From Thalassotalea sp. (GTDB lineage: Bacteria > Pseudomonadota > Gammaproteobacteria > Enterobacterales > Alteromonadaceae), in NCBI GenBank assembly GCA_050300315.1, contig JBNKXM010000001.1, forward strand, positions 1 to 31,839: a stretch of 31,839 nt of DNA, given 5' to 3'. A model generated the notes under the pieces. The model saw nothing but the letters and a program-made list of their open reading frames with translations. It had not been told where the DNA came from and made no database searches. Position 1 is the stretch's first letter. The number at the start of each line of letters is the position of its first letter. The position numbers were made by a program, and so were the translations under genes. Positions 733-31,839 of the stretch are shown piece after piece.

Positions 733-2340
733 TTATTTAGCTCCGATAGATTTTACTTCATCAGCGTTAAGTCCGCCGATAAATGTTTTAAAGTTCGACA
801 TAACTCCATAGCAATTTTGTGAATCATCCGGTGCACTACCTAAATTAATTAACCCTGTTAAATCTAATTCGCTTGTAACAGTGTCGGCAATATCAAAAAT
901 CAATTGCTTGTTAACGTAACCTTTAATGTTCGTAGGTGTTCTTTCTATGACAAAATCATAAGACAGGTTAGGGATGATCGGGTCAAGCAACGTATGTAAA
1001 ACAGAAGAACCCATACGCACCTGAAAAAGTCCGCTAGTGGACTGCACTATGTCGAAAGTAAAAGCAGGGTTAGTGTCAACGCCCAATATAAATTGATTAC
1101 CCGTAGTATTACCTAAAGACCTGTACGTAAATGCTATTGCAATAGTATCATCTAAACTAGTGATATTGTTCAGCACTGTAGTAGATATTAAGTCAGAAGC
1201 CCTTGCAAAAGTCGATGTGGTTGTTTTGGCGTAGCTAGAAGGGAATGGTAAATCTTCAAGCTGGACTTTGTCTATACCAATACCAAACCCTGAAACTCCT
1301 TGGTAAAGTATTGTACCAGAAGCGTCTATTGCGATCGCAAACTGAGCACTGTTGCCGCCTATACTTGTGCAAACATAGCTGTAAGAAACAATGAACTTAC
1401 CTCCTTCAATAGCCCTAATACTCGGGTTTATCGCATCAACACCGGATGTTGTGACCGTACCAGCCTCTAAGTCAAAGACTACGTTACTGTTCGGTATTGT
1501 TGCGATTCCTGACCACAGATACTTTCGTTCTTTTGCAAAACACTCTGCTTGTACTGTGTAAGTTTTACCTACTATTTGGGTGGCGGACTGTGACATGAAG
1601 TGCATACCGTTTGAGCCATCTTCATCTATACCGTCAACGCTGACGGTAATGCCTGTTTTACTCCAAGCAGCATTGCTAAAATCTTCAGAGTGTAATAACT
1701 CGTTAGTGGTCGCACCTTCCATTAAGTACCCGTCTGATTCTTCACGCAGTACATCGTTGTTTACAGTGCGGAGTACGCCGTACCTATCTCTATATGACCC
1801 ACCGCTAGCTCTTGTTGAACTTAGTAGGTCGCTCAATTTAACAACTGGCGCATTAGGTGCTAGGACGTGACATAACGGGTTATTAAGCTTTGTTAAATTA
1901 ACATTAGCCATATTAACATCGTTGATCACCTGCCAATCTGAATTGCCTTCACTAGGTTCGCTTAGCGTTATATCAGCTATCGCCACTTCAACGCGCCACG
2001 TGCTCCCGTTGTGCGAGTAAGAACTCCCAACTGTTGCAGCCCCTGTAGCGTCTGACCATCTACCTTTGAAATTAGCTAAACTTTGAGCTGTTAAAGCGCT
2101 GTCCGCTGCGTTATTCGCACTAGCTAGCGCATCTACGGCACTAGCTGCCGCAGCATCTTTGTAGCCATTAACCAAACCGACATCAATATTAAACTCTGCG
2201 ATTGATGTGTTAATTCCTGGCACAAGCGAAACAGACTGATAAGTAGTCCATGTTACAGCGTTGGTTGAAAAATCCTCAGCCGACTGAGTGTTCGGATCTG
2301 GAACTACGCCACCATAAACTGGAACAGTTGATACTGTCAT
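733..2340 (-). CDS. Tail fibre / receptor-binding protein with a probable C-terminal lectin-like (LamG/ConA-type) beta-sandwich
   Basis: 535 aa with an Ala-rich N-terminal stalk and phage fibre motifs (TRASGGSYRDRYGVL, NELLHSEDFSNAAW, QLEDLPFPSSYAKTT); located after the tape measure and tip genes. Confidence 0.75.
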   Translation of the reverse strand: MTVSTVPVYGGVVPDPNTQSAEDFSTNAVTWTTYQSVSLVPGINTSIAEFNIDVGLVNGYKDAAAASAVDALASANNAADSALTAQSLANFKGRWSDATGAATVGSSYSHNGSTWRVEVAIADITLSEPSEGNSDWQVINDVNMANVNLTKLNNPLCHVLAPNAPVVKLSDLLSSTRASGGSYRDRYGVLRTVNNDVLREESDGYLMEGATTNELLHSEDFSNAAWSKTGITVSVDGIDEDGSNGMHFMSQSATQIVGKTYTVQAECFAKERKYLWSGIATIPNSNVVFDLEAGTVTTSGVDAINPSIRAIEGGKFIVSYSYVCTSIGGNSAQFAIAIDASGTILYQGVSGFGIGIDKVQLEDLPFPSSYAKTTTSTFARASDLISTTVLNNITSLDDTIAIAFTYRSLGNTTGNQFILGVDTNPAFTFDIVQSTSGLFQVRMGSSVLHTLLDPIIPNLSYDFVIERTPTNIKGYVNKQLIFDIADTVTSELDLTGLINLGSAPDDSQNCYGVMSNFKTFIGGLNADEVKSIGAK

Positions 2341-3261
2341 TTAAATTAACTCCTGCACATCGAAATTAAGTGCTATTTTGCTTGGTGAATTTATCTCACC
2401 TATTTTGTAGTTACTATAATAACCGAAAGTTGTCATTGCGTCATTAACATCAGTTTCGTCGCCAATCCAAACGGTCTCAGTTTGTGATAATGATTTCATT
2501 AGATTTTTAACATAAAGGGATTTTTGTCTGTCTATAAAACATTTATATTCCATGACATCAGCAGTATCACGCCTAGTAATATCAAACCCTCCAAACCCGT
2601 CGCTAGTTCTTATGCTGTAATCGACACCAGTTATTCCAGAGCCGTAAGCTGTTTCGCCTAAATCAAGATATGAACCTAGCACCAAATTGCCAAAACCAAT
2701 ATCGCCGCCACCAGTGACAGATATTGTAATGTCTTTGGCAATGACTGGAGGCAAATCAGTTAGCACAAATCTTGTAATAGCAATAACAGGTGAGAAAAAG
2801 AAATAATACCAATCTGTACGCGCTGAGTTATCCCTCATTGATATATCACGATCGTATATATCACTCACACCATCATTGACAGTTACGTTAATTGCATCAG
2901 CTCCAGTAATATTAAACCCTGCTAAAGAGTTAGTTAATGTTGCTGGTGTTATTGTCACATCAAGAGTAGTGTTATCGAAAGATTGCGTACCGTTCTTGTT
3001 GTCGAACATAGCCCATGCGTTAGTAGGACCAATATCAACCCAAGTCGCAGGATTAGCATCTACTCCAACCTCAGGATCGTCAGTTGTACTAGGGTCAGCC
3101 ACAACTCGATATCGCCTATGTGTCGATGACTTAATGCGCTCATCACCTAGATTGTAAGTGCCAGCAGACCATTCTATCTCGCCGTATGCCGCATCTGGTT
3201 CAGGGATTGTTGAGCTAGTTAAAACAGCATCATTAACTGTTATTGGGTTAATTACTCTCAT
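2341..3261 (-). CDS. Tail-tip / distal tail structural protein
   Basis: 306 aa, immediately downstream of the tape measure gene (1-nt overlap); Trp-containing CBM-like N-terminus (WSAGTYNLGD...TWVDIGPTNAWAMFD). Confidence 0.6.
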   Translation of the reverse strand: MRVINPITVNDAVLTSSTIPEPDAAYGEIEWSAGTYNLGDERIKSSTHRRYRVVADPSTTDDPEVGVDANPATWVDIGPTNAWAMFDNKNGTQSFDNTTLDVTITPATLTNSLAGFNITGADAINVTVNDGVSDIYDRDISMRDNSARTDWYYFFFSPVIAITRFVLTDLPPVIAKDITISVTGGGDIGFGNLVLGSYLDLGETAYGSGITGVDYSIRTSDGFGGFDITRRDTADVMEYKCFIDRQKSLYVKNLMKSLSQTETVWIGDETDVNDAMTTFGYYSNYKIGEINSPSKIALNFDVQELI

Positions 3262-6200
3262 TATGGTTCTACCCTTACGTCTAATCCGCCGCCAATCATT
3301 TGCTGCAACAATCGGTTTGTTATTTTTGTGTTTTGTCTGATTTCTTCATTTTGAGCCAAAATATTATCGTCTAATTCTTTTTTAGCTGGATCAACAACCG
3401 GTTCAGTTGTCGTAGTTGGCTCTGGTGGATTAGCGATAATATCATTAAGATTATTAATAGCATCAGTAACACTCATTATGCTGGTATCTATACCATAAAG
3501 CGCGTCTAGCTGAGCTTGAGCATTAAGTATAACATCATCAAGCCTAGATATTTCATCGTCATACGTTTGCTGTGCTAGCTCTAACAACGCATTAGCTGCT
3601 GCAAGTTCATTGTCAAGAGCTTCTAGCATTGAATCAGTTTGAAGTGAATCAAGTTGCAATTGCGCTTCTTGATATTGTGTTATTGCGTCATTTAATGACA
3701 ATACCGTGTTATCGATACCTAAAATTGAGTTATACTGATCGTCAAGCGCTTTTAGTTGCTCTTGATTGTCTGCCTGTGCTTGTGATATTTGATGGCTTAG
3801 ATAACCAGAGATCCCTTCTAATACTGCTATTTGTCTTTCCGCGTCAGTTGCTCTAGTGCCAGCTAATCCAGATATTTGAGCTAATTGGTTTTTAGCTAAC
3901 GCTTGTGCTGCTTTAAATTCTGTCGCAGAAGAAAAGCCAGAAGCTGATGGTAATTGACCGCTTAAACCTTTAGCCGCGCTAAAATCACCACGTCTAGCGC
4001 TTGCCAATGCCGCACCAATATCATCGTTAACAAGCCCTGCTGCGTTAGCTAATGATTGTGATAATGATCTCATATCATTTGCAACGGATGATAAGCTAGA
4101 TTTTCTACCGCTTAATAACGATATCTCAGCATTTAATCCTGATATTCTTTCGTTGGTCGCATCTTGTATCGCATTTCTTTGCGCTTCAAAACTTGCATCT
4201 AAAGCGTTTTTTGCTAAATCAAGACCTTGTTGAGCTGAGCTTTCTTGAGCTAATACCGCATCGCGTTGAGTGTTAATTCTTGATACTTCTGCGTCATAAG
4301 CCAAACGTGCGTTGTTTAAAATCTCTTTAGCCCTGTCTTTTTCTAAAGCTACCGATTCTTTCAACGCGCTCATAGCTGAATTTAACGCGTTGGTATATTC
4401 GTTTTCCATTGAATCAAAAAACGCGTCCATTCCTGGCACTAACTGCATAAGCGCGGCAAACATTTCTTGACCTGCTTCAGTGGTCAAGTCTAACCCATCA
4501 ACTAACGCCCTAAACTGATCTCTCGTCGCTGGCATAGTTTGGCCTAGCTCTTCGAAAGATGCGTTTAACGACGATGTAAGGAAGTCGAACTGCTCAGACT
4601 GATCGTAAAAAGAATTAAAATATTGCGTTGTTAATTGGTTTAACGAATCTAAGCCGCCAACCATTTCAACAACATTAGTAGCAGCTTTTGCGGCCGCCTC
4701 ACCAATCAGTCCAAAATCAAGCCCTAGCGTATCGGTAACTTGATTGAATGCTTGCATATTCATAATTAGGCGATCAATAGTTTGTATTGATGATTCGCTC
4801 TCTTTAGCAAACTCTTCAGCTAAACCACCAAATACAGCAGTTACCATTTGTTCGGTTGTTTTGTTAGCCCAATTAGATATTTCAGCTTGTATTTCTTCTT
4901 CGCTCATTCCTTTAATACTTTTTGAGAATGACGAAGAAAAGTTGTTAATAAAGTCCTCAACCGATGTTTCAGTTGTAGTTGTTACCGTTTCAAAAGAGCG
5001 TTTAAAATCAGTTTCAAAGTCACGAATGAAATTAGTTGTTGTTTGTGTAACTGTCGTTATATCTAAAAGTTTAGCAGCATCTAATATTGAATCCTGAACG
5101 CTTTGGAACATATCGCCAATTACAGACAAATCTAAATCGTTTTCTGTTAATCTTGTTTTAGTGCCTCGAAATAATGAGCGTTTCTTTTGTTCTTTCAACA
5201 ATGTTGATCCAAAAGCGCCTTCAGATCCAAAACCTAAATTCAACGTACGATCTTTTTCTTTGTAACTTGTGCCAAATAATCCACCGCCAGTTATCTTATC
5301 GACGATACCAGCCGCAGCCGCAGCGATTGCAGCAATAGGTAATGACGCGCCTATTCCAGCCGCTATTTCTCCACCGCCGAATAATGAGCCTATATTACTA
5401 AATGCGCCTGATAAACTTCCTGCGCCTAATAATGCGTTAGTGCCGCCGAATCCTGACGAAAAAGCACCACCTAACCCACCTAAACCGCCAAGTATTCCAC
5501 CAGCATTTGCAGCGCTACTAATGCCACCTAAACCAAGAGCGGTGCCAATTTGTAAAACAATCGGCTTAGTAACAGCGAGATGGATCATCTCTGCTAGCAT
5601 GCGCTTGAAGCCATCGATAACAGAATCAAAAACATTGCCAGATCCGTTGATGATATTTAACCACACGTCAGAGAATGCCTTATCTATTCTTTTAATCATT
5701 CCTTCGGTAATTTTTAAAAAGCTTTTTGACTCAGACTTAATTGATTTTGATACTTTAGCTGTTGTTATTTTCGCTTGAGATTCTATTTTTTTATAAACCG
5801 ATAGCGTAGCATCTCTCTCGGCTAATATATCAGCTATAGTTGATTGCCTTGCATTCTTCGACGCCAAAATTCTAGCCTCTGCTGATTCTTTAGCAGCCGC
5901 GCTTTCTTCATCCCTTGCTGTCTCTGCTATTAAAATCTGTTCTTCTGCTGCTTGAAGGTACTCATTCGTCATGGCCTTTGATATATTTTCTGCATTTTTT
6001 ATTGCAGCATCAAAATCAAACGTGTCGCCATCAAAAGGATTTAGAGCGTCTTTTATCTCTAATCCGTATATCTTTACTTTTTCTACTATCTCAGCAAGCC
6101 TAGTACCTAATACATTGCCAAAAGCTTTAATGTAAGCCTCTACAATGGTTGGTATTGTAACGAAAGGAGATTTAATGGCGTTAATGATCAGTTTTGAATG

Positions 6201-21576: not shown

Positions 21577-22086
21577 ATGAAAATAAACAGAGCTTGGGCT
21601 ATGCCAAATAAAAATACATTTAGCATAAAGCCGATAAATGAACTAATACAGCGATATATAAATGACCGAGTTTCAATATCAATAGACCCTTTTGCAAATA
21701 CAAATAGGTTGGCTAGGTTTTGTAATGACTTAGATCCGCAGTATGGCACAGAATTTTGTATGGATGCTTTAGATTTTTTAAAATCATTTGATGACAATAG
21801 TGTCGATCTTGTCTTGTTTGATCCTCCATATAGTCCAAGACAAGTTAGTGAATGTTATAAATCATTAGATGTGACAGTAAATATACAGACAACACAAGCC
21901 AGTTTTTGGGGTAATATGAAAAAGGAGATAGAAAGAATTACCATGAGCAATGGAATAGTAATTACTTTCGGATGGAATAGCGGCGGCATAGGGAAAACAA
22001 AAGGATTTAAAATAAAAGAAATATTAATGGTTGCGCATGGGGGTTGGCATAACGACACCATATGCACAGTAGAGGTTAAGGATTAA
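21577..22086 (+). CDS. Compact DNA adenine methyltransferase
   Basis: IDPFAN (SAM-binding-like) and LVLFDPPYSPRQ (motif IV); 169 aa. Confidence 0.8.
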   Translation: MKINRAWAMPNKNTFSIKPINELIQRYINDRVSISIDPFANTNRLARFCNDLDPQYGTEFCMDALDFLKSFDDNSVDLVLFDPPYSPRQVSECYKSLDVTVNIQTTQASFWGNMKKEIERITMSNGIVITFGWNSGGIGKTKGFKIKEILMVAHGGWHNDTICTVEVKD

Positions 22087-22090
22087 AACC

Positions 22091-23584
22091 CTAACCATCA
22101 ACAGGCGGCAAGTTCAAATTGCCGCCATCATTTTCTAGCTCTGCAATGGTGTCTTCAGCATCTTGAATATCCCAACCTCCATCAGCTAACTGTTTGGCAA
22201 CTTGATCACGAGTTCTTACGCCGTTGTTGTAAAGCTCGAGCAATACTTTAACTTCTTCCACTTGCATTTTAGGTGTTGCAAAGTCGCGAGGCAGTGTGAC
22301 AACAGCTTGATCGTACTGGTGAACTTCTTCTGGAGAAACCAACCCTTCGAACATAGCACAATAAGCTAATAGCTTTTCAAGGCCGTTCTCGACGCTTGTC
22401 GCAATCGTATCAAGTAAAGCGTTTTGTGATGTGGCAACAATATTAGCCTCTGTAGCTGTCATATTGCTAGCCTCCGCACCACTCTTGCCGCCCATTTCAG
22501 CTACTTGCTTTTTAGATTGTTCAAAGTACCAGTGGAAATCTTCCATTTCAGCTTGTGCGCTAACAACGTCAACTTCTACATTGTTTGGCAATCCATTCAT
22601 CGAGTAAGGACCCGACTCTATATTGTCGCGACCGTTAACTTCTTCGAATAAATCTTTATCACCTGTTCGCCAGCCTTTCGTGTAAGTTGTTGGCAATAAA
22701 GCTTTTTGGCATTCTTTATACAATGCGCTTGTTCTGTACCGATATAAAACTTTGTCGCTGATACCGTAAAGATAGCCGAGTGAACAAGGAAGCTTACCTG
22801 GTTGTGTTTCTTCGTCAGCGATAATGTCACCCGGGATAAACTTTAGCGGCTTACCGTTAACTAGATGATAATTTCTATCACCTAAAACACCGTCACCATT
22901 AGCGCCATAAACAATCTTTTGCTGGTAGTAATCGCCGTTATCGTCAAGTGCCAAAATGAGATAGCTTTGCACTTCTTGCGCAACATAATTGGTTGAGTCG
23001 AACACCTCGCCGCGCTCAAGCAGCATGATAAACGATAACTGCATAGCGCCATTGATGCGCGTAAAGTTCCAGTTGACGATGTTTTCACGAGAATATAACT
23101 TAGCAACCGCTTTTGGGTTAAGCGCCTTTAAATCTGCCAAGCTAATACTATCAAGATTAATTCCGCTTAAACCTTGATAATCAGCCAGCCAAAACTTAAA
23201 TTTAACTTGCAGCACATCATTAACGATTGATTCTGCGATATTTTTTAGTGATGCGCCGTCACCGTCCATATCGTCGAGCATGTAATTTAGCTTGTCTGGC
23301 AATTCAGCAGTGATGTCATCAAGTCGCATCTTACCGATTAATTCACGGCGCGTATCGTCAGTGTCGTTATCGAACTCAGCATTTAAAATATAATCATCGT
23401 AACGGGCTATTGCTCGTTTAGATGTCGTATCAGTTTGCGATGGATGTGGCAAATACTTATAGCGCTCACGTTTAACCTTGTTAGCGCCCTCAACACAATC
23501 ACGTACTTGCTCAATAGCTTTAATAGAGTAATTATAATTTTCGTGGGTGTTAACGCGAATACCGTTAATGCTATTAGTTGTCAT
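22091..23584 (-). CDS. Portal protein (DUF4055-like; start revised from 23605)
   Basis: About 500 aa; KYLP...RY..Y...A.F.N.T..T...L.G...D.DGDG pattern; upstream of the scaffold and capsid genes. Confidence 0.85.
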   Translation of the reverse strand: MTTNSINGIRVNTHENYNYSIKAIEQVRDCVEGANKVKRERYKYLPHPSQTDTTSKRAIARYDDYILNAEFDNDTDDTRRELIGKMRLDDITAELPDKLNYMLDDMDGDGASLKNIAESIVNDVLQVKFKFWLADYQGLSGINLDSISLADLKALNPKAVAKLYSRENIVNWNFTRINGAMQLSFIMLLERGEVFDSTNYVAQEVQSYLILALDDNGDYYQQKIVYGANGDGVLGDRNYHLVNGKPLKFIPGDIIADEETQPGKLPCSLGYLYGISDKVLYRYRTSALYKECQKALLPTTYTKGWRTGDKDLFEEVNGRDNIESGPYSMNGLPNNVEVDVVSAQAEMEDFHWYFEQSKKQVAEMGGKSGAEASNMTATEANIVATSQNALLDTIATSVENGLEKLLAYCAMFEGLVSPEEVHQYDQAVVTLPRDFATPKMQVEEVKVLLELYNNGVRTRDQVAKQLADGGWDIQDAEDTIAELENDGGNLNLPPVDG

Positions 23585-23613
23585 CGTAGAGCGCCTTAAA
23601 TTCAATTACTCTA

Positions 23614-23680
23614 ATTGTAAGGCTTTTGTTGTATTGGTTCAACTGGTCGGAGTTGTTGTTCGCTATTTATGTGTTAAGGT
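23614..23680. promoter_or_regulatory. Divergent promoter module 7 with FadR-type box AACTGGTCGGAGTTGTT (23641-23657)
   Basis: Plus-strand TG-T-TAAGGT (23675-23680); minus-strand TTGAAC-N17-TACAAT, whose -35 overlaps the box edge. Confidence 0.7.
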
Positions 23681-23711
23681 TGGTTTAGGAAATAACTAAG
23701 GAGTCAAAAAA

Positions 23712-23879
23712 ATGACAATCCCATACGAACTATTACTGGAAGCTAACGCCAAAGTAACCAAAGAAACAAAAAAGCGCAGACTTAGCGAGCGCGAGCAAAA
23801 AGCGCGCTCAATTAAACAACGATTAGACCAACTGAAATTAAAACGTGAATTAATGGAGATAGAAAATGAGCACAGCTAA
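23712..23879 (+). CDS. Small basic coiled-coil protein, 55 aa (not in the ORF track)
   Basis: AAGGAG RBS; MTIPYELLLEANAKVTKETKKRRLSEREQKARS... Confidence 0.6.
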   Translation: MTIPYELLLEANAKVTKETKKRRLSEREQKARSIKQRLDQLKLKRELMEIENEHS

Positions 23880-24327
23880 AAAGATTGAAGAACTACGCGC
23901 AAAGATTGATGAATTAGAAGCGCAGTTGAAAGCAGAACAAGATCCGATGTTTGATGATATTTATGTTGGTGATGATTATCTTTTTATATGTAGTCGTTTC
24001 AATGTATCGTTGAGTAATCATATAGGGCACGAGTTAGACGAAGAAAAACTAAAAATCGCAAACGCCTTCAAAGACAAAAAACAAGCACAAGCCTGTGCTG
24101 ATTATTTAAAAGATCGATTTTGGTTTATCAGGAAAGCAGTTGAGTTTGCTGATGAGTATGAGTTTAAGCGTAGAAATAGAAATTATTATGTTTTTTATAA
24201 TACTGGCGAAAACAAGTGGGGTTATGATCTCAATGACGATTTTAATGGAGGCTCTATCTACATGACTGAACAAAACGCCACTAAATTCTGTGAATGGCTA
24301 AACAAGCATAAGCCAGAGGGGTTTTAG
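23866..24327 (+). CDS. Hypothetical protein with an N-terminal coiled coil
   Basis: 153 aa, GGAG RBS. Confidence 0.7.
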   Translation: MSTAKKIEELRAKIDELEAQLKAEQDPMFDDIYVGDDYLFICSRFNVSLSNHIGHELDEEKLKIANAFKDKKQAQACADYLKDRFWFIRKAVEFADEYEFKRRNRNYYVFYNTGENKWGYDLNDDFNGGSIYMTEQNATKFCEWLNKHKPEGF

Positions 24328-24328
24328 T

Positions 24329-24631
24329 ATGATCACTATAAAACCAAAACTGTCCGAAGAATCATTTGAGGTAGGTGAATATTATGCTTATCCTAAATTC
24401 AGGAATTGCGAAGATAATTTAAGGTTTTATTATGAGCCAGATAATGCCCAACAAAATGCTTTTATAGAAATGGTAAAAGATAAAAGCATGATTTGTGATA
24501 TTGAGATTGAAATAGAGCGCGATATGATTCTGAATATAAGTGCCTTTGTTAATTTTGTGAAAATATCATGGGAAGTCGACAACTGCGCATATGTAGAGCT
24601 TGAAGTTATTATTCCACCCCAACACGCCTAG
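24329..24631 (+). CDS. Hypothetical protein; 3' end overlaps the head morphogenesis gene
   Basis: 100-aa ORF, 23-nt convergent overlap. Confidence 0.6.
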   Translation: MITIKPKLSEESFEVGEYYAYPKFRNCEDNLRFYYEPDNAQQNAFIEMVKDKSMICDIEIEIERDMILNISAFVNFVKISWEVDNCAYVELEVIIPPQHA

Positions 24632-26765
24632 CAATAATAGGGTGGCGCTTGATAATCTCGTCAAGCGATAATGGGTTGCCGTTAATGTCACTAAACTGCT
24701 TTAACGTCAATCCACCCTCTTTAAATAGTTTAAACCTCTTAGCGCCTAGCGTATCTTTAATATAATAATCTGGCTGTTCGCGTAGCCACTTATCAAGAGG
24801 TGTATTCGCGGCTATCTGCTCAGGCGTGAAGATGTTCTTGTCTTTTTTGCCGCGGTATCTTACTTGGCTTTTAGTTCGCAACCTTGATTTTCTTTCGTTG
24901 AATGCTTCCTCGCCACTTTCTTTAGCGCCTAAAGCCGCGCGTGTGCCAACTGGATCTAATCCTTTTGGCACGGCTATACGTCTTGTGCGGCAATTGTGAA
25001 CAACAATATTATCAATTAGATAAGTGTTATCATCTTCAACCTCTAAGTTGTAAACGTCCTTGTTATATTCTACAATTGAAATGTCACTTACAATTGAGGT
25101 ATTCCAATTATGTTTAAAGGTAGCGATCTTACCAACAAAGATTTCTTTCACTCTTTTCTTAAAGAACACAACCACATTAGAAGAAAAACACTTCGCGCTA
25201 TCGAGCGCGAATTTAATCTTGCTAACGGAACTATGAGTAGATGGTGCCGAGTGCATGACATTAAACCTCTTAGTAAGTCCGAGGCTGCTAGAGAGGCTGC
25301 AAAAATTAAGGTGTCTAATGGTTTGTGTGTTGGCTCTAACCATTGGGCTTATGGTATGACCAAGAAAACCTCCGAAATTCATGCTAGGCATTCTGAAAGG
25401 ATGGCTAGCAACAACCCTGTCCATAACCCCAAGACTAAAGCAAAGATCTTGGCAACTATGAGAGATATTTACAGGGAAACAAAAGTTTTTGGCGAAGAAT
25501 CTTTCAAGGAGTTCTTTGGCGATTCCTTTTTTATCCATCAATATATTATTGGAGATTCCATTAGGGATTTTGTCAATGTCGAGAACAAGATCGTTGTCGA
25601 GATCGATGGAAGAGGCCACGCTTCCAGATTCGAAAGCGACCTTAGTAAAGACCTCTTCGCTATCGAACAAGGATGGGTAATCATACGGGTTAGCTTCGAC
25701 AACAGGCGACCTATTAGTGATTGGACTTTTCTCTCCGTAGTACTCAAAAAGATGATCCCCAACTTTGATTTCATCGGCTCTGACCCATCCAGCCCCATCA
25801 AGAAGTACAGGATGCTCATCCGTAACTCTGATTTCCCTACCGGATTTAAAACGAATAACCCTTATGACGCTAGAATCGTTAGACTTTCTCATAACAGTTA
25901 ATACTTTTTTAAATCTACCTTTATGAGTTAAAACCTCATCACCAACGGCAACTTCCTCTATCGGTTTGTTGCCGTTTTTAGTTAAAACCCTTTCACCTTC
26001 CGCGACAGCATTGAAATGCAACGGAGGGCGTGGTGCTTTTAGATCGTTAACTGAAAACCTACGCGACTTTTCATTCATTGTGCTGATTGACTGACAAATA
26101 TTTGACGTTCTTGAATCAAATACTATGACATAGAAATACTCATCAAGAACATCTTTATTATCGTTTATCATAGCTTCGTTAGCTGCTGCTGCATAATGCT
26201 GATAACCAGTACGAGCTAATGCCTCTGCTTCACGTTTTAGCACACCATCAAACGTTGTGCGAATATCGCGTGACATTTCGTTAATAGTTGCGCCGCGAGA
26301 ATACCCGGTCTTAACAATGCCGTTAATCGCACGTTTACGGCTATCTAAATTAGCATGATAAAACTCTGACCATGTACCAGCATTAACGCGCTTACCACTT
26401 TCTAGTGACATTAACGCGTTGTTAACGTATGAAGCTATTTTCTTTTCTGCTGGCGTTGATAGCTTGCTAGCAATAGCGGCACCGATAAATTGAGCTTGCC
26501 ATTGTGCTTCGTAGGTTGCGAGGGGCAACAAAGACTCATTAGTCATTGTTAACCAACCACCGTTATCCTCGATAGCTTTATTGATCGCAACTAATACTCT
26601 ATTGAGTTGAGCTTTGGTTGTGATTGATTCTTCAGCCTGGAGTAATTGACGAATAGCTTTGTAGGTGTCAACTAATGACGGATAAACATACGAGTTTATG
26701 CCGCCACTAGCTAAGCGATTGATATATAATTCGTGTTGCAGGAATTCATCGAGGTTTAGAGCCAT
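24609..26765 (-). CDS. Head morphogenesis / minor capsid protein (Mu gpF / SPP1 gp7 family), intein-containing precursor; predicted spliced product 379 aa
   Basis: AEALARTGY, VFDSRTSNIC and the split PPLHFN|CRTRRI motif. Confidence 0.9.
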   Translation of the reverse strand: MALNLDEFLQHELYINRLASGGINSYVYPSLVDTYKAIRQLLQAEESITTKAQLNRVLVAINKAIEDNGGWLTMTNESLLPLATYEAQWQAQFIGAAIASKLSTPAEKKIASYVNNALMSLESGKRVNAGTWSEFYHANLDSRKRAINGIVKTGYSRGATINEMSRDIRTTFDGVLKREAEALARTGYQHYAAAANEAMINDNKDVLDEYFYVIVFDSRTSNICQSISTMNEKSRRFSVNDLKAPRPPLHFNAVAEGERVLTKNGNKPIEEVAVGDEVLTHKGRFKKVLTVMRKSNDSSVIRVIRFKSGREIRVTDEHPVLLDGAGWVRADEIKVGDHLFEYYGEKSPITNRSPVVEANPYDYPSLFDSEEVFTKVAFESGSVASSIDLDNDLVLDIDKIPNGISNNILMDKKGIAKELLERFFAKNFCFPVNISHSCQDLCFSLGVMDRVVASHPFRMPSMNFGGFLGHTISPMVRANTQTIRHLNFCSLSSSLGLTKRFNVMHSAPSTHSSVSKIKFALDSAKCFSSNVVVFFKKRVKEIFVGKIATFKHNWNTSIVSDISIVEYNKDVYNLEVEDDNTYLIDNIVVHNCRTRRIAVPKGLDPVGTRAALGAKESGEEAFNERKSRLRTKSQVRYRGKKDKNIFTPEQIAANTPLDKWLREQPDYYIKDTLGAKRFKLFKEGGLTLKQFSDINGNPLSLDEIIKRHPIIARRVGVE
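25048..25100 (+). promoter_or_regulatory. Antisense sigma70-like promoter and Shine-Dalgarno site inside the intein coding sequence
   Basis: TTGTAA (25048-25053), N17, TACAAT (25071-25076); GAGGT (25096-25100) 9 nt before ATG 25110. Confidence 0.65.
25110..25901 (+). CDS. Putative homing endonuclease (HTH plus NUMOD3-like repeats plus DUF559/Vsr-like EDxHD nuclease) encoded antisense within the intein
   Basis: LRAIEREFNLANGTMSRW; GSNHWAYG and SNNPVHNPKTKAKI; QYIIG...DF....KIVVEIDGRGH......D..KD....EQGWVIIRV; has its own promoter and RBS. Confidence 0.85.
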   Translation: MFKGSDLTNKDFFHSFLKEHNHIRRKTLRAIEREFNLANGTMSRWCRVHDIKPLSKSEAAREAAKIKVSNGLCVGSNHWAYGMTKKTSEIHARHSERMASNNPVHNPKTKAKILATMRDIYRETKVFGEESFKEFFGDSFFIHQYIIGDSIRDFVNVENKIVVEIDGRGHASRFESDLSKDLFAIEQGWVIIRVSFDNRRPISDWTFLSVVLKKMIPNFDFIGSDPSSPIKKYRMLIRNSDFPTGFKTNNPYDARIVRLSHNS

Positions 26766-26792
26766 TTATGCGCCACTGCCACCTTCACTCAT
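26766..26792 (-). CDS. Possible 8-codon coupling peptide MSEGGSGA
   Basis: AAGGAG RBS; ATGA overlap with the upstream gene; TAA directly abuts the gpF ATG. Confidence 0.3.
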   Translation of the reverse strand: MSEGGSGA

Positions 26793-26956
26793 AATTCTAT
26801 CTCCTTCAAATAAGCCTTTGCAATAATGCGAGATAGCTCTTTATCTTCTTTCTGCCCGTTAGCTATTTGCCTGATGGATAAAACAGGTACGACATGTACC
26901 TGTTTATCTTCAGTTATAACCACGAGAGGCTGTTGTTCGCTTAGGTTAACAGTCAT
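26789..26956 (-). CDS. Hypothetical protein, 55 aa (not in the ORF track)
   Basis: TAGATG junction with the upstream gene; MTVNLSEQQPLVVITEDKQVHVVPVLSIRQIANG... Confidence 0.55.
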   Translation of the reverse strand: MTVNLSEQQPLVVITEDKQVHVVPVLSIRQIANGQKEDKELSRIIAKAYLKEIEL

Positions 26957-27241
26957 CTAAAAACAACTGTCAACCACTACTAAAATAACAGTTTTACAAT
27001 CACTTCTACCGCCGCTAGTCGTCCACTCGTACTCAATTTGTGACCCACCAGACGCTAATGCGGTCAAAGACACGCCAATAACATTATCTGTAACGCCAGA
27101 GCTGTTTTTCTGAACAGTAACACCATCGACGATAACATTGTGAGTAGATATTGTCTCAGCGCCTAACCAAGCACTATCAACCGTGTAAGTGTAAGTATCG
27201 GTATTGCCAACAGATAAGCGCTTTTCGAATATCTCAGCCAT
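26957..27241 (-). CDS. Small Ig-like structural protein (fibre adaptor-like)
   Basis: 94 aa, beta-rich; YTVDSAWLGAETIS...TTSGGRSD pattern seen next to phage fibre genes. Confidence 0.5.
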   Translation of the reverse strand: MAEIFEKRLSVGNTDTYTYTVDSAWLGAETISTHNVIVDGVTVQKNSSGVTDNVIGVSLTALASGGSQIEYEWTTSGGRSDCKTVILVVVDSCF

Positions 27242-27249
27242 TTCAAAGC

Positions 27250-27699
27250 CTATGCGTTAGTTGTTACTGTTACAGCGCCGCTAGCGTTAACTGTCAACGT
27301 GAAGCCTTGAGTTAAATCAACAGGTGTTGTGCCGTCAGTTGTTAAATCTGTAACGCGCAAAGCATCATCAGCGACGCTAGTATCGTTAACTATCACCAAG
27401 CAACAAGCATCTGTAGGATTACCAGCGTTTGCGGCAAATGTTACGTCATCAAAATCTAACGTACTTACTGCTCCTGTACGAGACCATGTAACACCTGTTA
27501 ATGCGGTTTTTCCTGCATAGTTACCACCAACTGTCGCGCCTGTAAAGCTTGCAAGGTTTGGTGTTGCTGCATTTGCGTCGATAGATACGTATGTGTTTGT
27601 TACTAAAACCCAGCTGAACGTGTCCGTACTATTGTTGTACGCGCCGTTTCCAGATTTCAAGTCGTATTCTGCGAACTTCTTCGCGTCACCTTGAGCCAT
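27250..27699 (-). CDS. Fibre-associated structural protein
   Basis: 149 aa, Thr/Gly/Ala-rich; DTFSWVLVT...NY.GKTALTGVTW...TLDFDDVTF pattern. Confidence 0.55.
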   Translation of the reverse strand: MAQGDAKKFAEYDLKSGNGAYNNSTDTFSWVLVTNTYVSIDANAATPNLASFTGATVGGNYAGKTALTGVTWSRTGAVSTLDFDDVTFAANAGNPTDACCLVIVNDTSVADDALRVTDLTTDGTTPVDLTQGFTLTVNASGAVTVTTNA

Positions 27700-27737
27700 G
27701 TTATTAACCTCAATTTATTTAATGTTTATAGTTTATA

Positions 27738-28307
27738 TTAACCATTTATGTTTGTCGATAAAGCTGGCGCTGTGATGTTTGTTGATAATGCGATTGCTGT
27801 GATGTTTGTTTCGCTCACAACAGTAAAATCAAACGCGCCTATCTGAATAAAATCATTATTAACTACCGATAAACTATTGATAGTTGAATCATTGACGATC
27901 AACTCACCAAATAAAATAATGCTGTCGATATTTACTATCGAGCTTGTGTTAGATGTTTGCTCGCTTATGTTAAAAGCGCCAACTGTCAATATACTGTCGT
28001 TATTAGCAGAAGAGCTTGAATTTGTGGCTGAATCGCTAATATTAACTGTCGAAGCAAAACTAATTGTATCGTTATTGCATATTGATTGGCTGTTAGTTGA
28101 GCTATCATCAATTAAAAAAGCACCACCTGATATAACATCAGCATTTACATTGCTATTTGAATTTGTTGTCGAATCGTTTATTAATACGGTCGATGACAAC
28201 GAAATATTATCGTTGTTAACTATCGATGATGAATTATTAGCGCCGTCATTAATTGATACTGATCCGCTTACCCATATATTAGGAGACTGCCATACATTTA
28301 CGCTCAC
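27738..28307 (-). CDS. Repeat protein (about six tandem 24-aa units), probable fibre or beta-solenoid
   Basis: Consensus xxxxxI(N/S)DSxxNSxSxxNNDxIxx. Confidence 0.65.
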   Translation of the reverse strand: MSVNVWQSPNIWVSGSVSINDGANNSSSIVNNDNISLSSTVLINDSTTNSNSNVNADVISGGAFLIDDSSTNSQSICNNDTISFASTVNISDSATNSSSSANNDSILTVGAFNISEQTSNTSSIVNIDSIILFGELIVNDSTINSLSVVNNDFIQIGAFDFTVVSETNITAIALSTNITAPALSTNING

Positions 28308-30286
28308 ACTGTCACACCTTCAATATAAGCACCATTAGAACTTGGGTCTAACCCATCATCAACATAACCTTTTATTCGTGATCCTGACACTATCGGTAGC
28401 GATTGACTGCCTGTTTCGCTAGTGTATGTTATGCTACCCCTAAACAATCTATTACCATTTTCATCATCTAATACTGTCGTAAATGAACCATCTGTCATTC
28501 CAGTTATAGACAAATTCAATATTGAACTAAAGAATGCAGCATCAATGCCATTAAACAACGCAGACGCGACATTCGCTGTATCTACATCTGCTTCGTAATG
28601 AACTCCAGTGAATACCGCGGACATATCAACGTATTCTAATGCGTTAGAGTTTGTTGATACTATATCCTGCATCCACTGGTTTACATTCGTACCGTTGGCT
28701 TGTGCTATCCCGCATATTACGCTGCCCTTTCCTGTTAACGTAGCTAACTGGTCTATGACTGCATTATATTGTGTTTTAAATGTAGCTTCTATGGTTCCTG
28801 TATCTGCGTCTGTTTCCCCTATCCAAGAGCAAACACCCTCAACGTCATTACCTCCAGAGTTAGTTAAATAATCTAACATACGATTATTGAATGTCCCTCC
28901 AGTCTGCCACTGCGAAAGAGCTGTACTTCCCTGTGCTACACCAATAAAACCCACAGGTATGGATTTATCTGCCACTAATAAATTAGCTAGGATTGGAAAT
29001 AATGAACCTGATGAGGTTGCCGTATCAAACGGATCTCCGCCTATTTGCCATGCGTCATTTGTAACAGTGTATTTATGAAAAAATCCTGCTGCCCCAGTAT
29101 AAGTTTGTGCGTTTGTCGCTCTACCAGAAAAGTTGCTTTGCCCCCAAAATAAAAACTTAGCACCTATAGCTATATTTGGCTGAGTAGACGTTACGCTAAC
29201 ATCATTGACAAATCTAACTACCAAATCACCATTGCCGACATCTTGCGCTGCTAATGTTCCACTATATGTTCCGCCTGAGGGGGCAGCATCAATTGTGGCA
29301 AACGCGCCGCCGTTAAAACTAGCTTCTATCGCTGTTGGTACTACCGCTCCGCTGTATGTACCATTAATAATAATATCTGCTTTGTTTGTTGCTACAGTTC
29401 TGCCAATAAAGGTAAATTCAGCAGGATTTATAATTGCGATAACATTAGCCACTGTTAGCTGCAACCCTATGTTAGTCCCACCAGTGCCTGTACCATCTAA
29501 TAACCCGCCAGTTTTAGAAGTCCATATATCATTAACAGTATCGGTAAAATCAGCGGTAGTAACACCCGTTACCGCTCCAGAACCATGAGCTGTGGCATCA
29601 CCAGACGCACAACTTAATAATGTTGCGCTTGTACCCTCGTAGTCCTTAACACCATTACCATAACAAACTGTAGAATCGTGAGTATTATTTGCTTTTTCGG
29701 TTATACCGCCGTGAAAAGTTGAATTTGTAGTATTGCAACCCTCAATAACACAATGTTTTGTCGTAAATCCGTCACCATTAGACCACAAACCTGATTTAGT
29801 GGAACCTGTAATATGACAGTTCTCGAAATGGTATAAAGCTGTGTTACTAGATCGACCCCTGATTGCAGACTCACCACCAACAATTTTACATTCGTAAAAT
29901 TCAGCGTCTTGGTCTGCGAATATATCAACACCTATTGGATTGTCTGGATTGTCTGGATTAGAAGGCGAAACTGAGGTGGATTCTATCTCGAACCCTCTCG
30001 TGATGAATTTACTAGTAGTCCTGTTGTATAGAGCAAAACCGCTAGATGCGGTTATTTTTATGTGTGCTGCTGCTGGATTATCGAAATTGTATGCTACTCC
30101 ACTAGCTGCTCTTAGCTCTGCACCTCCACTGTTTGCTTTAGCAGCTAAAGTTGCTACAGATATAGTGCCTGAGTCTACATACTCACCAATGTAGCGATTA
30201 CCGTCATCTAATACGGCGTTAGCCCACCATAATTCAATGGTTTCGTAATCCTGTCCGACACCAATTGTGTTAATAATATCTGCCAT
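28304..30286 (-). CDS. Virion-associated enzyme: right-handed beta-helix-like domain plus sialate O-acetylesterase (SASA/SGNH) domain
   Basis: Parallel beta-helix-type repeats (FYECKI, HFENCHI, TTKHCVI) followed by FWGQSNFSG, WIGETD and GVHY. Confidence 0.72.
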   Translation of the reverse strand: MADIINTIGVGQDYETIELWWANAVLDDGNRYIGEYVDSGTISVATLAAKANSGGAELRAASGVAYNFDNPAAAHIKITASSGFALYNRTTSKFITRGFEIESTSVSPSNPDNPDNPIGVDIFADQDAEFYECKIVGGESAIRGRSSNTALYHFENCHITGSTKSGLWSNGDGFTTKHCVIEGCNTTNSTFHGGITEKANNTHDSTVCYGNGVKDYEGTSATLLSCASGDATAHGSGAVTGVTTADFTDTVNDIWTSKTGGLLDGTGTGGTNIGLQLTVANVIAIINPAEFTFIGRTVATNKADIIINGTYSGAVVPTAIEASFNGGAFATIDAAPSGGTYSGTLAAQDVGNGDLVVRFVNDVSVTSTQPNIAIGAKFLFWGQSNFSGRATNAQTYTGAAGFFHKYTVTNDAWQIGGDPFDTATSSGSLFPILANLLVADKSIPVGFIGVAQGSTALSQWQTGGTFNNRMLDYLTNSGGNDVEGVCSWIGETDADTGTIEATFKTQYNAVIDQLATLTGKGSVICGIAQANGTNVNQWMQDIVSTNSNALEYVDMSAVFTGVHYEADVDTANVASALFNGIDAAFFSSILNLSITGMTDGSFTTVLDDENGNRLFRGSITYTSETGSQSLPIVSGSRIKGYVDDGLDPSSNGAYIEGVTV

Positions 30287-30326
30287 TACTTTTTAAATCC
30301 TGATAGTTAATTACTGATAGAATACC

Positions 30327-30355
30327 AAAAAAAAGCCAACTTAAAAAGCTGGCTA
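30327..30355 (-). terminator. Intrinsic terminator after the terminase unit
   Basis: AGCCA...TGGCT hairpin followed by T8 on the minus strand. Confidence 0.6.
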
Positions 30356-30356
30356 A

Positions 30357-30590
30357 TTATTTTCGCTCATAATATATCTTATCAAAGCCAAGTGATTTAG
30401 CAAACCGCTGCAATTCTCTAAATTCTGATATTTTTAAATGCTTTCCACTTAACAGTTCAAAGTAAAACTTCCCTGCTGATATCCTTGCGACAACCGAAGC
30501 AGTGAATGGCTCGCCATGTTTATTTAGTCTCCTGAAGTACAACTCTTTAACCTCTACCGACCAATGCTCGAGTTGGGTTATATGTTTCAT
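30357..30590 (-). CDS. Hypothetical protein
   Basis: 77-aa ORF starting 1 nt after the terminase stop. Confidence 0.6.
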   Translation of the reverse strand: MKHITQLEHWSVEVKELYFRRLNKHGEPFTASVVARISAGKFYFELLSGKHLKISEFRELQRFAKSLGFDKIYYERK

Positions 30591-30591
30591 G

Positions 30592-31839
30592 TTAGTTGTA
30601 ATTAACGTGGGTTGATGGTGATGTATCTTTAGCTGTTAGTCTGTAACGTAAAGCATCATAATCGTGATCTTCTTGATCGGTATCAATATCATCAGGTTTT
30701 TTAGTGTCTCTTGATAATATAGGAAAGCGCGAAATAATACCGCGAACATTCTCGAAGAAATAAAGCGCTGGACGCTCTGGCAAACCACTTTCATTGTCTT
30801 TAGCCTCAAGAGCCGCTTCCAGCATTTCACATATGAGTGATGCACCAATAAGCCTTGAACCTGGTCTTTTATCAGATAGTGTCCATGTTACTCCTTGGTC
30901 AGCCATTTTATCGGCGATACTTATCTGATCGTCATCAGGGTTATTTATTGCATTATCTGCCGGGCCTGCAAAAACTCTTTTTGAAACTATACCCGGTAAT
31001 ATATTGCATTGACCTTTAAATTTAAAGGGTTCGTCAACTTCCTCACCAAGGAATCGCCTATCAACCCACTTAACCATTTTTGCAACGTTGGTTGAAGACA
31101 TGTTAAGTCCTTTGTTTAGCTCATCAGGTGAGCAACCGTAAAGCTCGCCAATAACAAACACAGTGCCTCTTGGTGGGCAGAATCCGTACTCGTTTTCTGT
31201 TCCGTCTGCCTCTGCAAACCATAAATTACTAAAAGGCTTTGATTCACCCCAATCGTGCGAGCGATCGACGCGCCATGTTTTAGGTATTTTAAATGGCTTG
31301 ACTATGTGAACTTTACTATCCCATAGGTGATCGAACCTTCCGCCGCTAGTAACATCCCACGAACCATCAACCCACGCGGCGCGTTTATTCGGGTCTTTGA
31401 TCGCCATTAGGTTAGCGATGTATTTTTTATCTAAGTATTTATTCTCACGCCAAGAGCCATGTATAGCAACGCGCGTTAGCGTTACATCTTCCTCGACATC
31501 GGTCGCAGGGTTTATAACCTTTGTTACTGTTCTGTATATTTTGCCGCGACCGATAACATCAATAAATCTGCGCTTAACCCAGTTGTGCCCAACTCCAAAA
31601 GGGTTAGTGGTTGAAAAGCACTCTAGTGGTATTGGTGGAAGCAATGACCCATCAGGTAAAGGGTAATCTTCAGGTCTAAACGATGAACGCATACATGAGA
31701 ACATCGACTCATAGAATTCCGCATCAGGACGCTTAGTTAATTCGTTGTGCCCCACGAACGGGAATTCTTGACCGTGATAATTCCAATAACCATCAGCCTT
31801 TTGCTCGTAACGAAAAAGCAACTCTTCACCTGTCGGCCA
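30592..31839 (-). CDS. Terminase large subunit, 5' end beyond the window
   Basis: Frame is open to the edge (WPTGEELLFRY); STTNPFGVGHNWVKRRF, RSHDWGESKPFS and DQEDHDYDALRY motifs. Confidence 0.92.
   Translation of the reverse strand, partial: WPTGEELLFRYEQKADGYWNYHGQEFPFVGHNELTKRPDAEFYESMFSCMRSSFRPEDYPLPDGSLLPPIPLECFSTTNPFGVGHNWVKRRFIDVIGRGKIYRTVTKVINPATDVEEDVTLTRVAIHGSWRENKYLDKKYIANLMAIKDPNKRAAWVDGSWDVTSGGRFDHLWDSKVHIVKPFKIPKTWRVDRSHDWGESKPFSNLWFAEADGTENEYGFCPPRGTVFVIGELYGCSPDELNKGLNMSSTNVAKMVKWVDRRFLGEEVDEPFKFKGQCNILPGIVSKRVFAGPADNAINNPDDDQISIADKMADQGVTWTLSDKRPGSRLIGASLICEMLEAALEAKDNESGLPERPALYFFENVRGIISRFPILSRDTKKPDDIDTDQEDHDYDALRYRLTAKDTSPSTHVNYN

Follow-up and report, generated by a model that had tools for sequence, protein, structure and literature searches.

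The gpF head morphogenesis gene in a 31,839-nt stretch of Thalassotalea sp. DNA (assembly GCA_050300315.1, contig JBNKXM010000001.1, positions 1-31,839, forward strand; this whole stretch is hereafter the window) contains an intein, inside which the gene of a presumed homing endonuclease runs on the opposite strand. Judging from sequence, we think it probable that this intein carries its own antisense expression unit, in which the promoter and Shine-Dalgarno (SD) sequence of the nuclease gene are written in the codons for the C-terminal strands of the Hint splicing fold. The gpF intein would be the mobile element, and its homing nuclease would be a separate, opposite-strand gene nested between the N- and C-terminal splicing parts. 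Because the antisense orientation cannot use gpF transcription and only about 115 nt separate the start codon from the intein boundary, the signals would have to be written into the C-terminal Hint codons. The candidate promoter is of the sigma-70 type, with a putative -35 element, TTGTAA, in the V-Y-N codons of intein block F and a putative -10 element, TACAAT, in the I-V codons of the SIVEY segment, from which RNA polymerase would initiate in this phage near 25083. The predicted transcript would have a leader of about 27 nt, in which the sequence GAGGT, antisense to T-S codons of the intein, would serve as the SD for nuclease translation. Nuclease synthesis would then be independent both of the promoters with FadR-type boxes that precede the gene cassettes of this phage and of late gpF expression. 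The suggestions of the original prediction that such a unit might permit early nuclease synthesis during replication, and might also produce antisense RNA against gpF, are reasonable but speculative. The features concerned are listed here by window coordinate.

24609-26765, minus strand: head morphogenesis gene (Mu F / SPP1 gp7-like, "gpF"), an open reading frame (ORF) call of 718 amino acids (aa), intein-bearing
24993-26009, minus strand: intein, 339 aa, from A253 (Ala1, 26007-26009) to HN591 (N591 at 24993-24995)
25110-25901, plus strand: nuclease ORF (presumed homing endonuclease), 263 aa, a helix-turn-helix followed by a DUF559/Vsr-like PD-(D/E)xK nuclease, wholly within the intein
25038-25058, minus strand: intein block F, DVYNLEV
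25065-25079, minus strand: intein SIVEY segment
25048-25053, plus strand: putative -35, TTGTAA, the reverse complement of V571 (GTT), Y572 (TAC) and N573 (AAC) of block F
25071-25076, plus strand: putative -10, TACAAT, the reverse complement of I564 (ATT) and V565 (GTA) of SIVEY
25096-25100, plus strand: Shine-Dalgarno GAGGT, with a 9-nt spacer to the ATG, the reverse complement of T556 (ACC) and S557 (TCA)
25110-25112, plus strand: nuclease start ATG, the reverse complement of H552 (CAT)

The two hexamers are separated by a 17-nt spacer, the -10 ends 33 nt before the ATG, and the whole putative unit from promoter to stop codon (25048-25901) lies inside the intein. The motif coordinates, spacers and codon map of the original prediction were exact in every case. 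Its statement that splicing motifs double as promoter and ribosome-binding site fits the V-Y-N of block F beneath the putative -35 but not, in the strict sense, T556 and S557 beneath the SD. These two residues belong to no classical splicing block; an AlphaFold model of the intein places them in beta-strand one of its structured C-terminal Hint part. In that model the structured C-terminal part starts at the residue adjoining H552 and the nuclease ATG, and thus all nuclease 5′ signals lie in codons of the folded splicing domain. Other motifs in the vicinity were considered and rejected. A second TACAAT (25089-25094) has no -35 at 16 to 18 nt, would place the transcript start within the SD, and is poorly kept in relatives (AACAAT, AACACT, AATACT); TTGAAA at 25076-25081 has no usable -10 downstream of it. 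The presumed leader yielded only a 5-bp stem (-4.7 kcal/mol) when searched for a hairpin that could sequester the ribosome-binding site.

More than 20 lineages have a Mu-F (gpF) intein with an antisense DUF559/Vsr-like nuclease within it, and it is the comparison across these relatives that carries the argument. In each lineage we searched the 120 nt ahead of the nuclease start for its highest-scoring sigma-70 match, with the -10 ending 20 to 60 nt from the ATG, and set this score against 2000 synonymous-codon shuffles in which both the intein protein and its codon usage were preserved. At p=0.016 the window was more promoter-like than its shuffles. Among the first 18 lineages, 10 reached p<0.05 and 14 reached p<0.065, and four further lineages (p=0.030, 0.0035, 0.027 and 0.013) brought the count at p<0.05 to 14 of 22. 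Applied to 49 control windows from the C-extein, the same test gave p<0.05 once (2%), with a median of 0.48. Fisher's combination gave 7e-5 for 10 of the contiguous forms and 3e-9 for the first 18 lineages, values that overstate independence because the lineages are related. A second test asked how far individual codons are frozen in the alignment between the nuclease start and the end of gpF, where 93 columns share a degenerate amino acid. Freezing was strongest at a Ser codon of the SD (TCC in 12 of 16, the top column), at the Val of the -10 (GTA in 10 of 10) and at the Ser of the TTGACA -35 used by group 2, described below (TCA in 8 of 10), and the nine most strongly frozen columns are all found no more than 37 columns from the start of the nuclease gene. 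The excess synonymous conservation in homologues that the original prediction proposed as a check is thus present, as nucleotide-level constraint at the SD, -10 and -35 codons, in both shuffles and codon freezing.

The signals themselves can be followed through the relatives, whose loci are given here by L numbers. GGAGG stands 6 to 8 nt before the nuclease start in most close relatives, where the intein residues are HFYSS and their codons, CAT TTT TAT TCC TCC, are the antisense of an ATG, an A-rich spacer and GGAGG; from the sequence, these residues look as if they were dictated by the nuclease start signals and not the reverse. Upstream of the SD the relatives fall into groups. Group 1 (the window, L006, L007, L009, L010 and L011) has TTGTAA-N17-TACAAT or a one- to two-base variant in the same codon register. 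The -35 register of the window recurs as TTGTAA in L006, L009 and L010 and as TTGAAA in L034, a phage of 61% GC that nevertheless keeps TTGAAA-N17-TACAAT in the same codons. The Val of the -10 is GTA in all six group-1 lineages and in 10 of 10 in the group 2/3 column, the Ile is ATT in nearly all, and an extended -10 (TGC before TACAAT or TACAGT) occurs in five of the six group-1 lineages, with Ala as GCA in 5/5. Group 2, the forms with split gpF, has TTGACA-N18 followed by TATAAT, CATAAT or TATACT, with the register displaced by two to three codons, and its -35 derives from L-S-I codons of block F with Ser TCA and Ile ATA in 7/7. The group-2 register was also tried in the window and rejected, as TATATT is present there but without a -35. 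In a separate observation, the 15 nt ATATTCTACAATTGA (codons S-I-V-E-Y, window 25065-25079) are identical in L001 (MG592631), whose nuclease is only 28% identical. The core 8-mer ACAATTGA (codons S-I-V), which includes the palindrome CAATTG, is also present in L002, L007, L012, L034 and L036 and is kept more widely than a plain -10 needs, at ATG distances that vary between groups; the conservation of the two sequences exceeds what a -10 hexamer alone explains.

The setting of the nuclease gene in the relatives bears on where its transcript could come from. Homologues 43-54% identical to the nuclease occur on short metagenome contigs, and those at 24-34% identity come from the Nahant collection of Vibrio phages and from numerous viral and metagenome contigs. 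In four Vibrio phage records (MG592631.1, MG592630.1, MG592457.1 and MG592566.1) the nuclease ORF (245-322 aa) is unannotated and lies antisense within the head protein gene, which is labelled "hint domain protein", "coil containing protein" or "hypothetical protein". The neighbouring genes are all on the gpF strand in 10 of 10 loci checked on contigs of sufficient length, namely these four and L033, L013, L015, L017, L019 and L042, so that the nuclease is the lone gene on its strand and would need a private promoter there. The frame opposite the nuclease, in the same codon phase, contains no stop across the nuclease ORF in 9 of the 9 loci fetched first (8 distinct sequences).

In some relatives gpF appears as two ORFs opposite the nuclease (L013 at 2084-4135, L015/L016, L017/L039, L018, L019/L040, L020, L037 and L041/L042). 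The N part consists of the N-extein and about 170-190 aa of the intein and ends within the 3′ half of the nuclease gene. In seven of eight loci checked, the C part carries a conserved Met placed 56-64 aa (mostly 59) ahead of the splice junction; its codon is preceded by GGAG or AGG and a CTTTTACC-like sequence, and this ATG sits inside the 5′ end of the nuclease gene. By their sequence these loci resemble natural split inteins ("fractured genes") in which a nuclease gene is nested on the antisense strand, and since they belong to the same family, the family spans contiguous and split inteins. These comparisons lead us to a broader proposition, to which we give somewhat less than an even chance: a complete antisense module of promoter, leader and SD would be held in the C-terminal Hint codons by synonymous-site selection, and this dual coding would allow inteins to persist in genes for late structural proteins. 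A constitutive promoter of its own would supply the nuclease independently of late gpF expression, convergent late transcription could subsequently switch the nuclease off, and the family would have moved repeatedly between contiguous and split inteins with the module kept.

Several observations weigh against an internal promoter, and they have to be set beside the alternatives that they favor. TTGTAA-N17-TACAAT matches the sigma-70 consensus at 9 of 12 positions, and within 22000-28000 of this AT-rich DNA there are 16 such sites against 16.0 +/- 4.3 in shuffles; because this density is at chance level, the case must rest on the comparison with relatives. The Tyr-Asn dipeptide dictates four of the six bases of the -35 (the TT and TA of TTGTAA). 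The TG of the extended -10, present in the closest relatives, is missing from the window, and L007, L011, L001, L019 and L021 show no excess over their shuffles (p = 0.19-0.52). The weight matrix used for scoring is built on general consensus frequencies from the E. coli promoter literature, which leaves the absolute scores rough, although the shuffle comparison depends little on them. The hexamers also change register between groups, deriving from L-S-I and D-Y codons in group 2 and from I-V codons in groups 1 and 3, at other distances from the ATG, and their assignment is therefore not unique. Finally, a plus-strand promoter lies 1.4 kb upstream of the nuclease gene.

23642-23680, plus strand: cassette-7 promoter, with a FadR-type box at 23642-23656 and TGn-TAAGGT at 23672-23680, driving the plus-strand ORFs at 23712-24631

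It belongs to a set of seven FadR-type boxes, all confirmed (7330, 10495, 11330, 12387, 14116, 20951 and 23642). As originally predicted, the region near 25048 differs from these in having no FadR-type box, and its putative -35 is TTG-type. Neither a consensus scan for plus-strand terminators between 24631 and 25110 nor a scan of 24560-25125 for hairpins with a T-run found a convincing one, and so read-through from cassette 7 could supply or add to the nuclease mRNA. The idea of a self-contained, switch-independent unit that moves with the intein is thus upheld as to location, the whole unit being inside the intein; its independence from cassette 7 is less secure, as no terminator-like site intervenes.

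The nuclease could on these grounds be simply the fourth gene of the cassette-7 transcript, which would pass the three plus-strand ORFs at 23712-24631, run 478 nt antisense to the gpF C-extein and enter the nuclease gene; the intein hexamers would be by-products of the V-Y-N and I-V codons, and the SD alone would be functional. The upstream promoter and ORFs, the absence of a terminator-like hairpin, the chance density of the hexamers and the demands of the Tyr-Asn dipeptide all fit this explanation. We nonetheless consider it unlikely, since relatives without a same-strand gene upstream keep an intact nuclease and the same upstream motifs, the promoter score of the window exceeds 98.4% of its synonymous shuffles, and the codons GTA for Val and ATT for Ile stay fixed between lineages with nucleases of only 28% identity. 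The cassette is moreover peculiar to this phage, whereas the intein-nuclease unit is much older, and read-through could still add to an internal promoter. It is less probable still that the constraint is real but marks no promoter, the frozen synonymous sites in the last 35 intein codons serving the gpF or intein side through rare codons (ATA, GTA, TCA, TCC) that slow ribosomes for co-translational Hint folding, through mRNA structure, or through binding of another factor, with an incidental likeness to -35 and -10 hexamers. Several frozen codons are indeed rare in these phages (TCC makes up 3% of the Ser codons in the window, and pooled usage puts ATA last of the three Ile codons, at 25%), the conservation of ACAATTGA goes beyond what a -10 requires, and the best -35/-10 pair shifts between groups. 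The frozen bases, however, spell GGAGG at the right distance from the ATG and TTGACA-N18-TATAAT or TTGTAA/TTGAAA-N17-TACAAT at 24-50 nt from it; the matrix score itself, beyond conservation, is above shuffles, and solely beside the nuclease start; and an AT-rich promoter island is kept in a GC-rich phage. That the hexamers and SD are chance motifs, meaningless beside a silent or decaying nuclease relic, we regard as very improbable. The chance-level quality of the hexamers within the window would suit a relic, as would an intein whose first residue is Ala and not Cys or Ser, which might make the element immobile. Against this, the ORF is intact with invariant catalytic residues, its model folds confidently, it stays open despite a codon bias that should close it (P = 3e-13), and the same arrangement recurs in the more than 20 lineages noted above.

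The features of the nuclease gene that speak for its being maintained are the following. The protein matches Pfam DUF559 at 37.6 bits (cut-off 20.6) and, among Protein Data Bank (PDB) sequences, the DUF559 structure 3HRL at an expect value (E) of 1.7e-9; the sequence search does not match 3R3P (I-Bth0305I). Its predicted structure has a mean pLDDT (predicted local distance difference test) of 78.8, and a Foldseek search of that model against the PDB returned no match at E<=0.001. The top match, 3R3P, has a probability of 0.99 and a TM (template modeling) score by target of 0.56 but a weak E of 0.13, and is kept only as a weak lead; Vsr (1CW0) ranks 17th in the same list. E164, D166, G167, G169 and H170 are invariant across 12 nuclease sequences, making the catalytic motif ExDGxGH and not a literal EDxHD. 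The gpF and nuclease genes share a common codon phase, which means that a stop in one frame is TTA, CTA or TCA in the other. These codons are favored by the phage (61% of Leu and 30% of Ser), yet neither gene uses any of them in the overlap (chance P = 6e-10 and 3e-13), indicating that both frames are held open by selection. The overlap extends to the splicing domain at the other end of the gene, where the 3′ end of the nuclease ORF overlaps intein block B. Conservation is also mirrored between the strands: the R(V/M)LIR motif at the nuclease C terminus (residues ~233-240) is the antisense of IRVTDEHP at block B, and SSAVxLD, conserved in the intein frame of relatives (window ~25590-25610), is the antisense of the catalytic motif IEIDGRG. 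Some residues that appear invariant in either alignment may therefore be imposed by the opposite gene.

The host gene and the intein were identified as follows. A tblastn search with gpF matched 722 phage records annotated as head morphogenesis and listed 351 Salmonella phage records, and gpF scores 25.5 bits (E 2.3e-5) against Pfam Phage_Mu_F, below the cut-off of 29.6; megablast of the gpF gene against the phage collection gave no match. The intein exceeds the cut-offs of Pfam Intein_splicing (48.8 bits, cut-off 35.8) and PT-HINT (36.9 bits, cut-off 27.7) and shows the TxxH of block B and C-terminal His-Asn followed by a Cys +1 nucleophile.

25809-25823, minus strand: intein block B, TDEHP, residues 315-319
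24993-25004, minus strand: intein block G, VVHN
24990-24992, minus strand: Cys+1 (C592) of the C-extein, directly after intein N591

The N-terminal junction, PPLHFN|AVAEG, was placed by alignment with Jerseyvirus PPAHPN|CLLGD, in which an intein occupies the same HxN|C site. Class 1 inteins begin with Cys or Ser and the first residue here is Ala, a sequence compatible with the class 2 (KlbA-like) splicing route; no class 3 Trp-Cys-Thr signature was found in the inteins compared (window and relatives). Ala is the first intein residue in the window, L001, L012, L021 and L034. In L033, the closest long relative of the window, it is Ser (SVAKGE for AVAEGE; L033:3392-3394), and some split relatives have Ser or Ala followed by Cys. 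In the AlphaFold model, residues 1-92 and 301-339 are predicted with confidence as beta-strands of the putative Hint fold, and residues 93-300, the segment that mirrors the nuclease ORF, have no fold (pLDDT ~25). The codons of the N-terminal strands contain an imperfect 35-nt direct repeat of 71% identity (25918-25952 and 25972-26006, at VAEGERVLTKNG and VGDEVLTHKG), which probably reflects the internal pseudo-symmetry of the Hint fold. Around gpF, the order of genes in 22091-31821 is unusual in that gpF stands ahead of the portal gene: minus-strand terminase large subunit fragments and a 660-aa unknown ORF come first, then gpF, the plus-strand cassette and the portal (22091-23605). In two groundwater contigs, L034:1482-4904 (1141 aa) and L036:776-5758 (at least 1661 aa), the ORF with the intein far exceeds a normal Mu F protein in length and may be a fusion with a neighboring head gene.

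Inteins inserted at the same HxN|C site harbor a second, different antisense nuclease family in Salmonella phage LSPA1 (NC_026017, L063:1024-1833, 269 aa), the one Salmonella phage record inspected for an antisense nuclease, and in Vibrio phage 1.197.A (MG592566, L004:2230-3198, 322 aa). This family has a core AVEVFGGGW and a likely start at Met20, and its block F codons (HVYNLEN) spell GAGG-N9-ATG. In L004 a perfect extended -10, TGTTATAAT, can be read from the codons of block G (IITHN), and TTGAAC stands 16 nt upstream of it.

The architecture has precedents. Full inteins with an antisense VSR-like homing endonuclease have been described in actinobacteriophages, including in minor capsid proteins, whose inteins in that survey have exclusively non-canonical nuclease types (Gosselin, Arsenault and Gogarten 2025, bioRxiv 10.1101/2025.01.02.630785); the words promoter and ribosome binding are absent from its text. 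The intein described here resembles those in being contiguous, with a Vsr-like ORF antisense between the splicing blocks, an open intein frame and a Mu F-type host protein. It differs in coming from a marine phage with FadR-type boxes and with relatives that include Vibrio phages, not from phages of Actinobacteria, and the double role of C-terminal splicing-domain codons as putative promoter and SD, with its synonymous-site evidence, does not appear in that paper. In fractured genes, a free-standing Vsr-like (EDxHD) homing endonuclease gene lies between the halves of a split intein (Dassa et al. 2009, PMC2677866; I-Bth0305I, PDB 3R3P), and promoter elements that overlap coding sequence were noted, along with hairpins, in the nuclease leaders (PMC2677866). 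Those genes share with the present case the association with phage inteins, regulatory signals (putative here) in the nuclease 5′ region and, among the relatives, splitting itself; the broad nuclease fold may be common to both as well, 3R3P being the best, though weak, structural match. The present intein differs in being contiguous, with its nuclease fully nested on the antisense strand and carrying the ExDGxGH motif of DUF559 and not EDxHD. Antisense LAGLIDADG ORFs have also been reported in inteins (Gorbalenya 1998; Gogarten et al. 2002; both as cited in bioRxiv 10.1101/2025.01.02.630785). As far as that citation describes them, they likewise place the homing nuclease on the strand opposite the intein, and the nuclease family differs here. 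We know of no promoter analysis in the papers on those ORFs. For mobE in nrdA of phage Aeh1, a nested homing endonuclease gene has embedded controls of its own (Gibb and Edgell 2007, as cited in PMC2677866). To the extent described there, the two cases share a nuclease gene in an essential phage gene and, on the reading proposed here, promoter and ribosome-binding site that overlap host sequence and expression decoupled from the host gene; mobE, however, is on the same strand and splits its host gene, whereas the signals here are antisense, in codons of a splicing domain that must stay functional. No description of promoters inside intein codons was found in the limited collection of literature searched. 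The architecture is thus known, and what is new here is the proposal that C-terminal splicing-domain codons also serve as promoter and SD, together with its support from synonymous sites and the extension to marine and Vibrio phages.

If the proposed expression unit is real, some 40 codons hold three layers of information: they encode a fold for protein splicing, and to a gene on the opposite strand they supply both promoter and ribosome-binding site. This intein would then be a compact natural case of dual coding. It would also be a warning that an intein recoded with synonymous codons may lose regulatory signals concealed in its sequence. In practical terms, the comparisons flag unannotated nuclease genes inside the "head morphogenesis" genes of cultured Vibrio phages and, judging by the one record of LSPA1, of Salmonella Jerseyviruses. 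Such a unit would also explain why the inteins of capsid-assembly genes in the 2025 actinophage survey have only non-canonical nucleases: a nuclease domain in frame with the intein would be made late, together with the structural protein, whereas an antisense gene with its own promoter would free the timing of homing.

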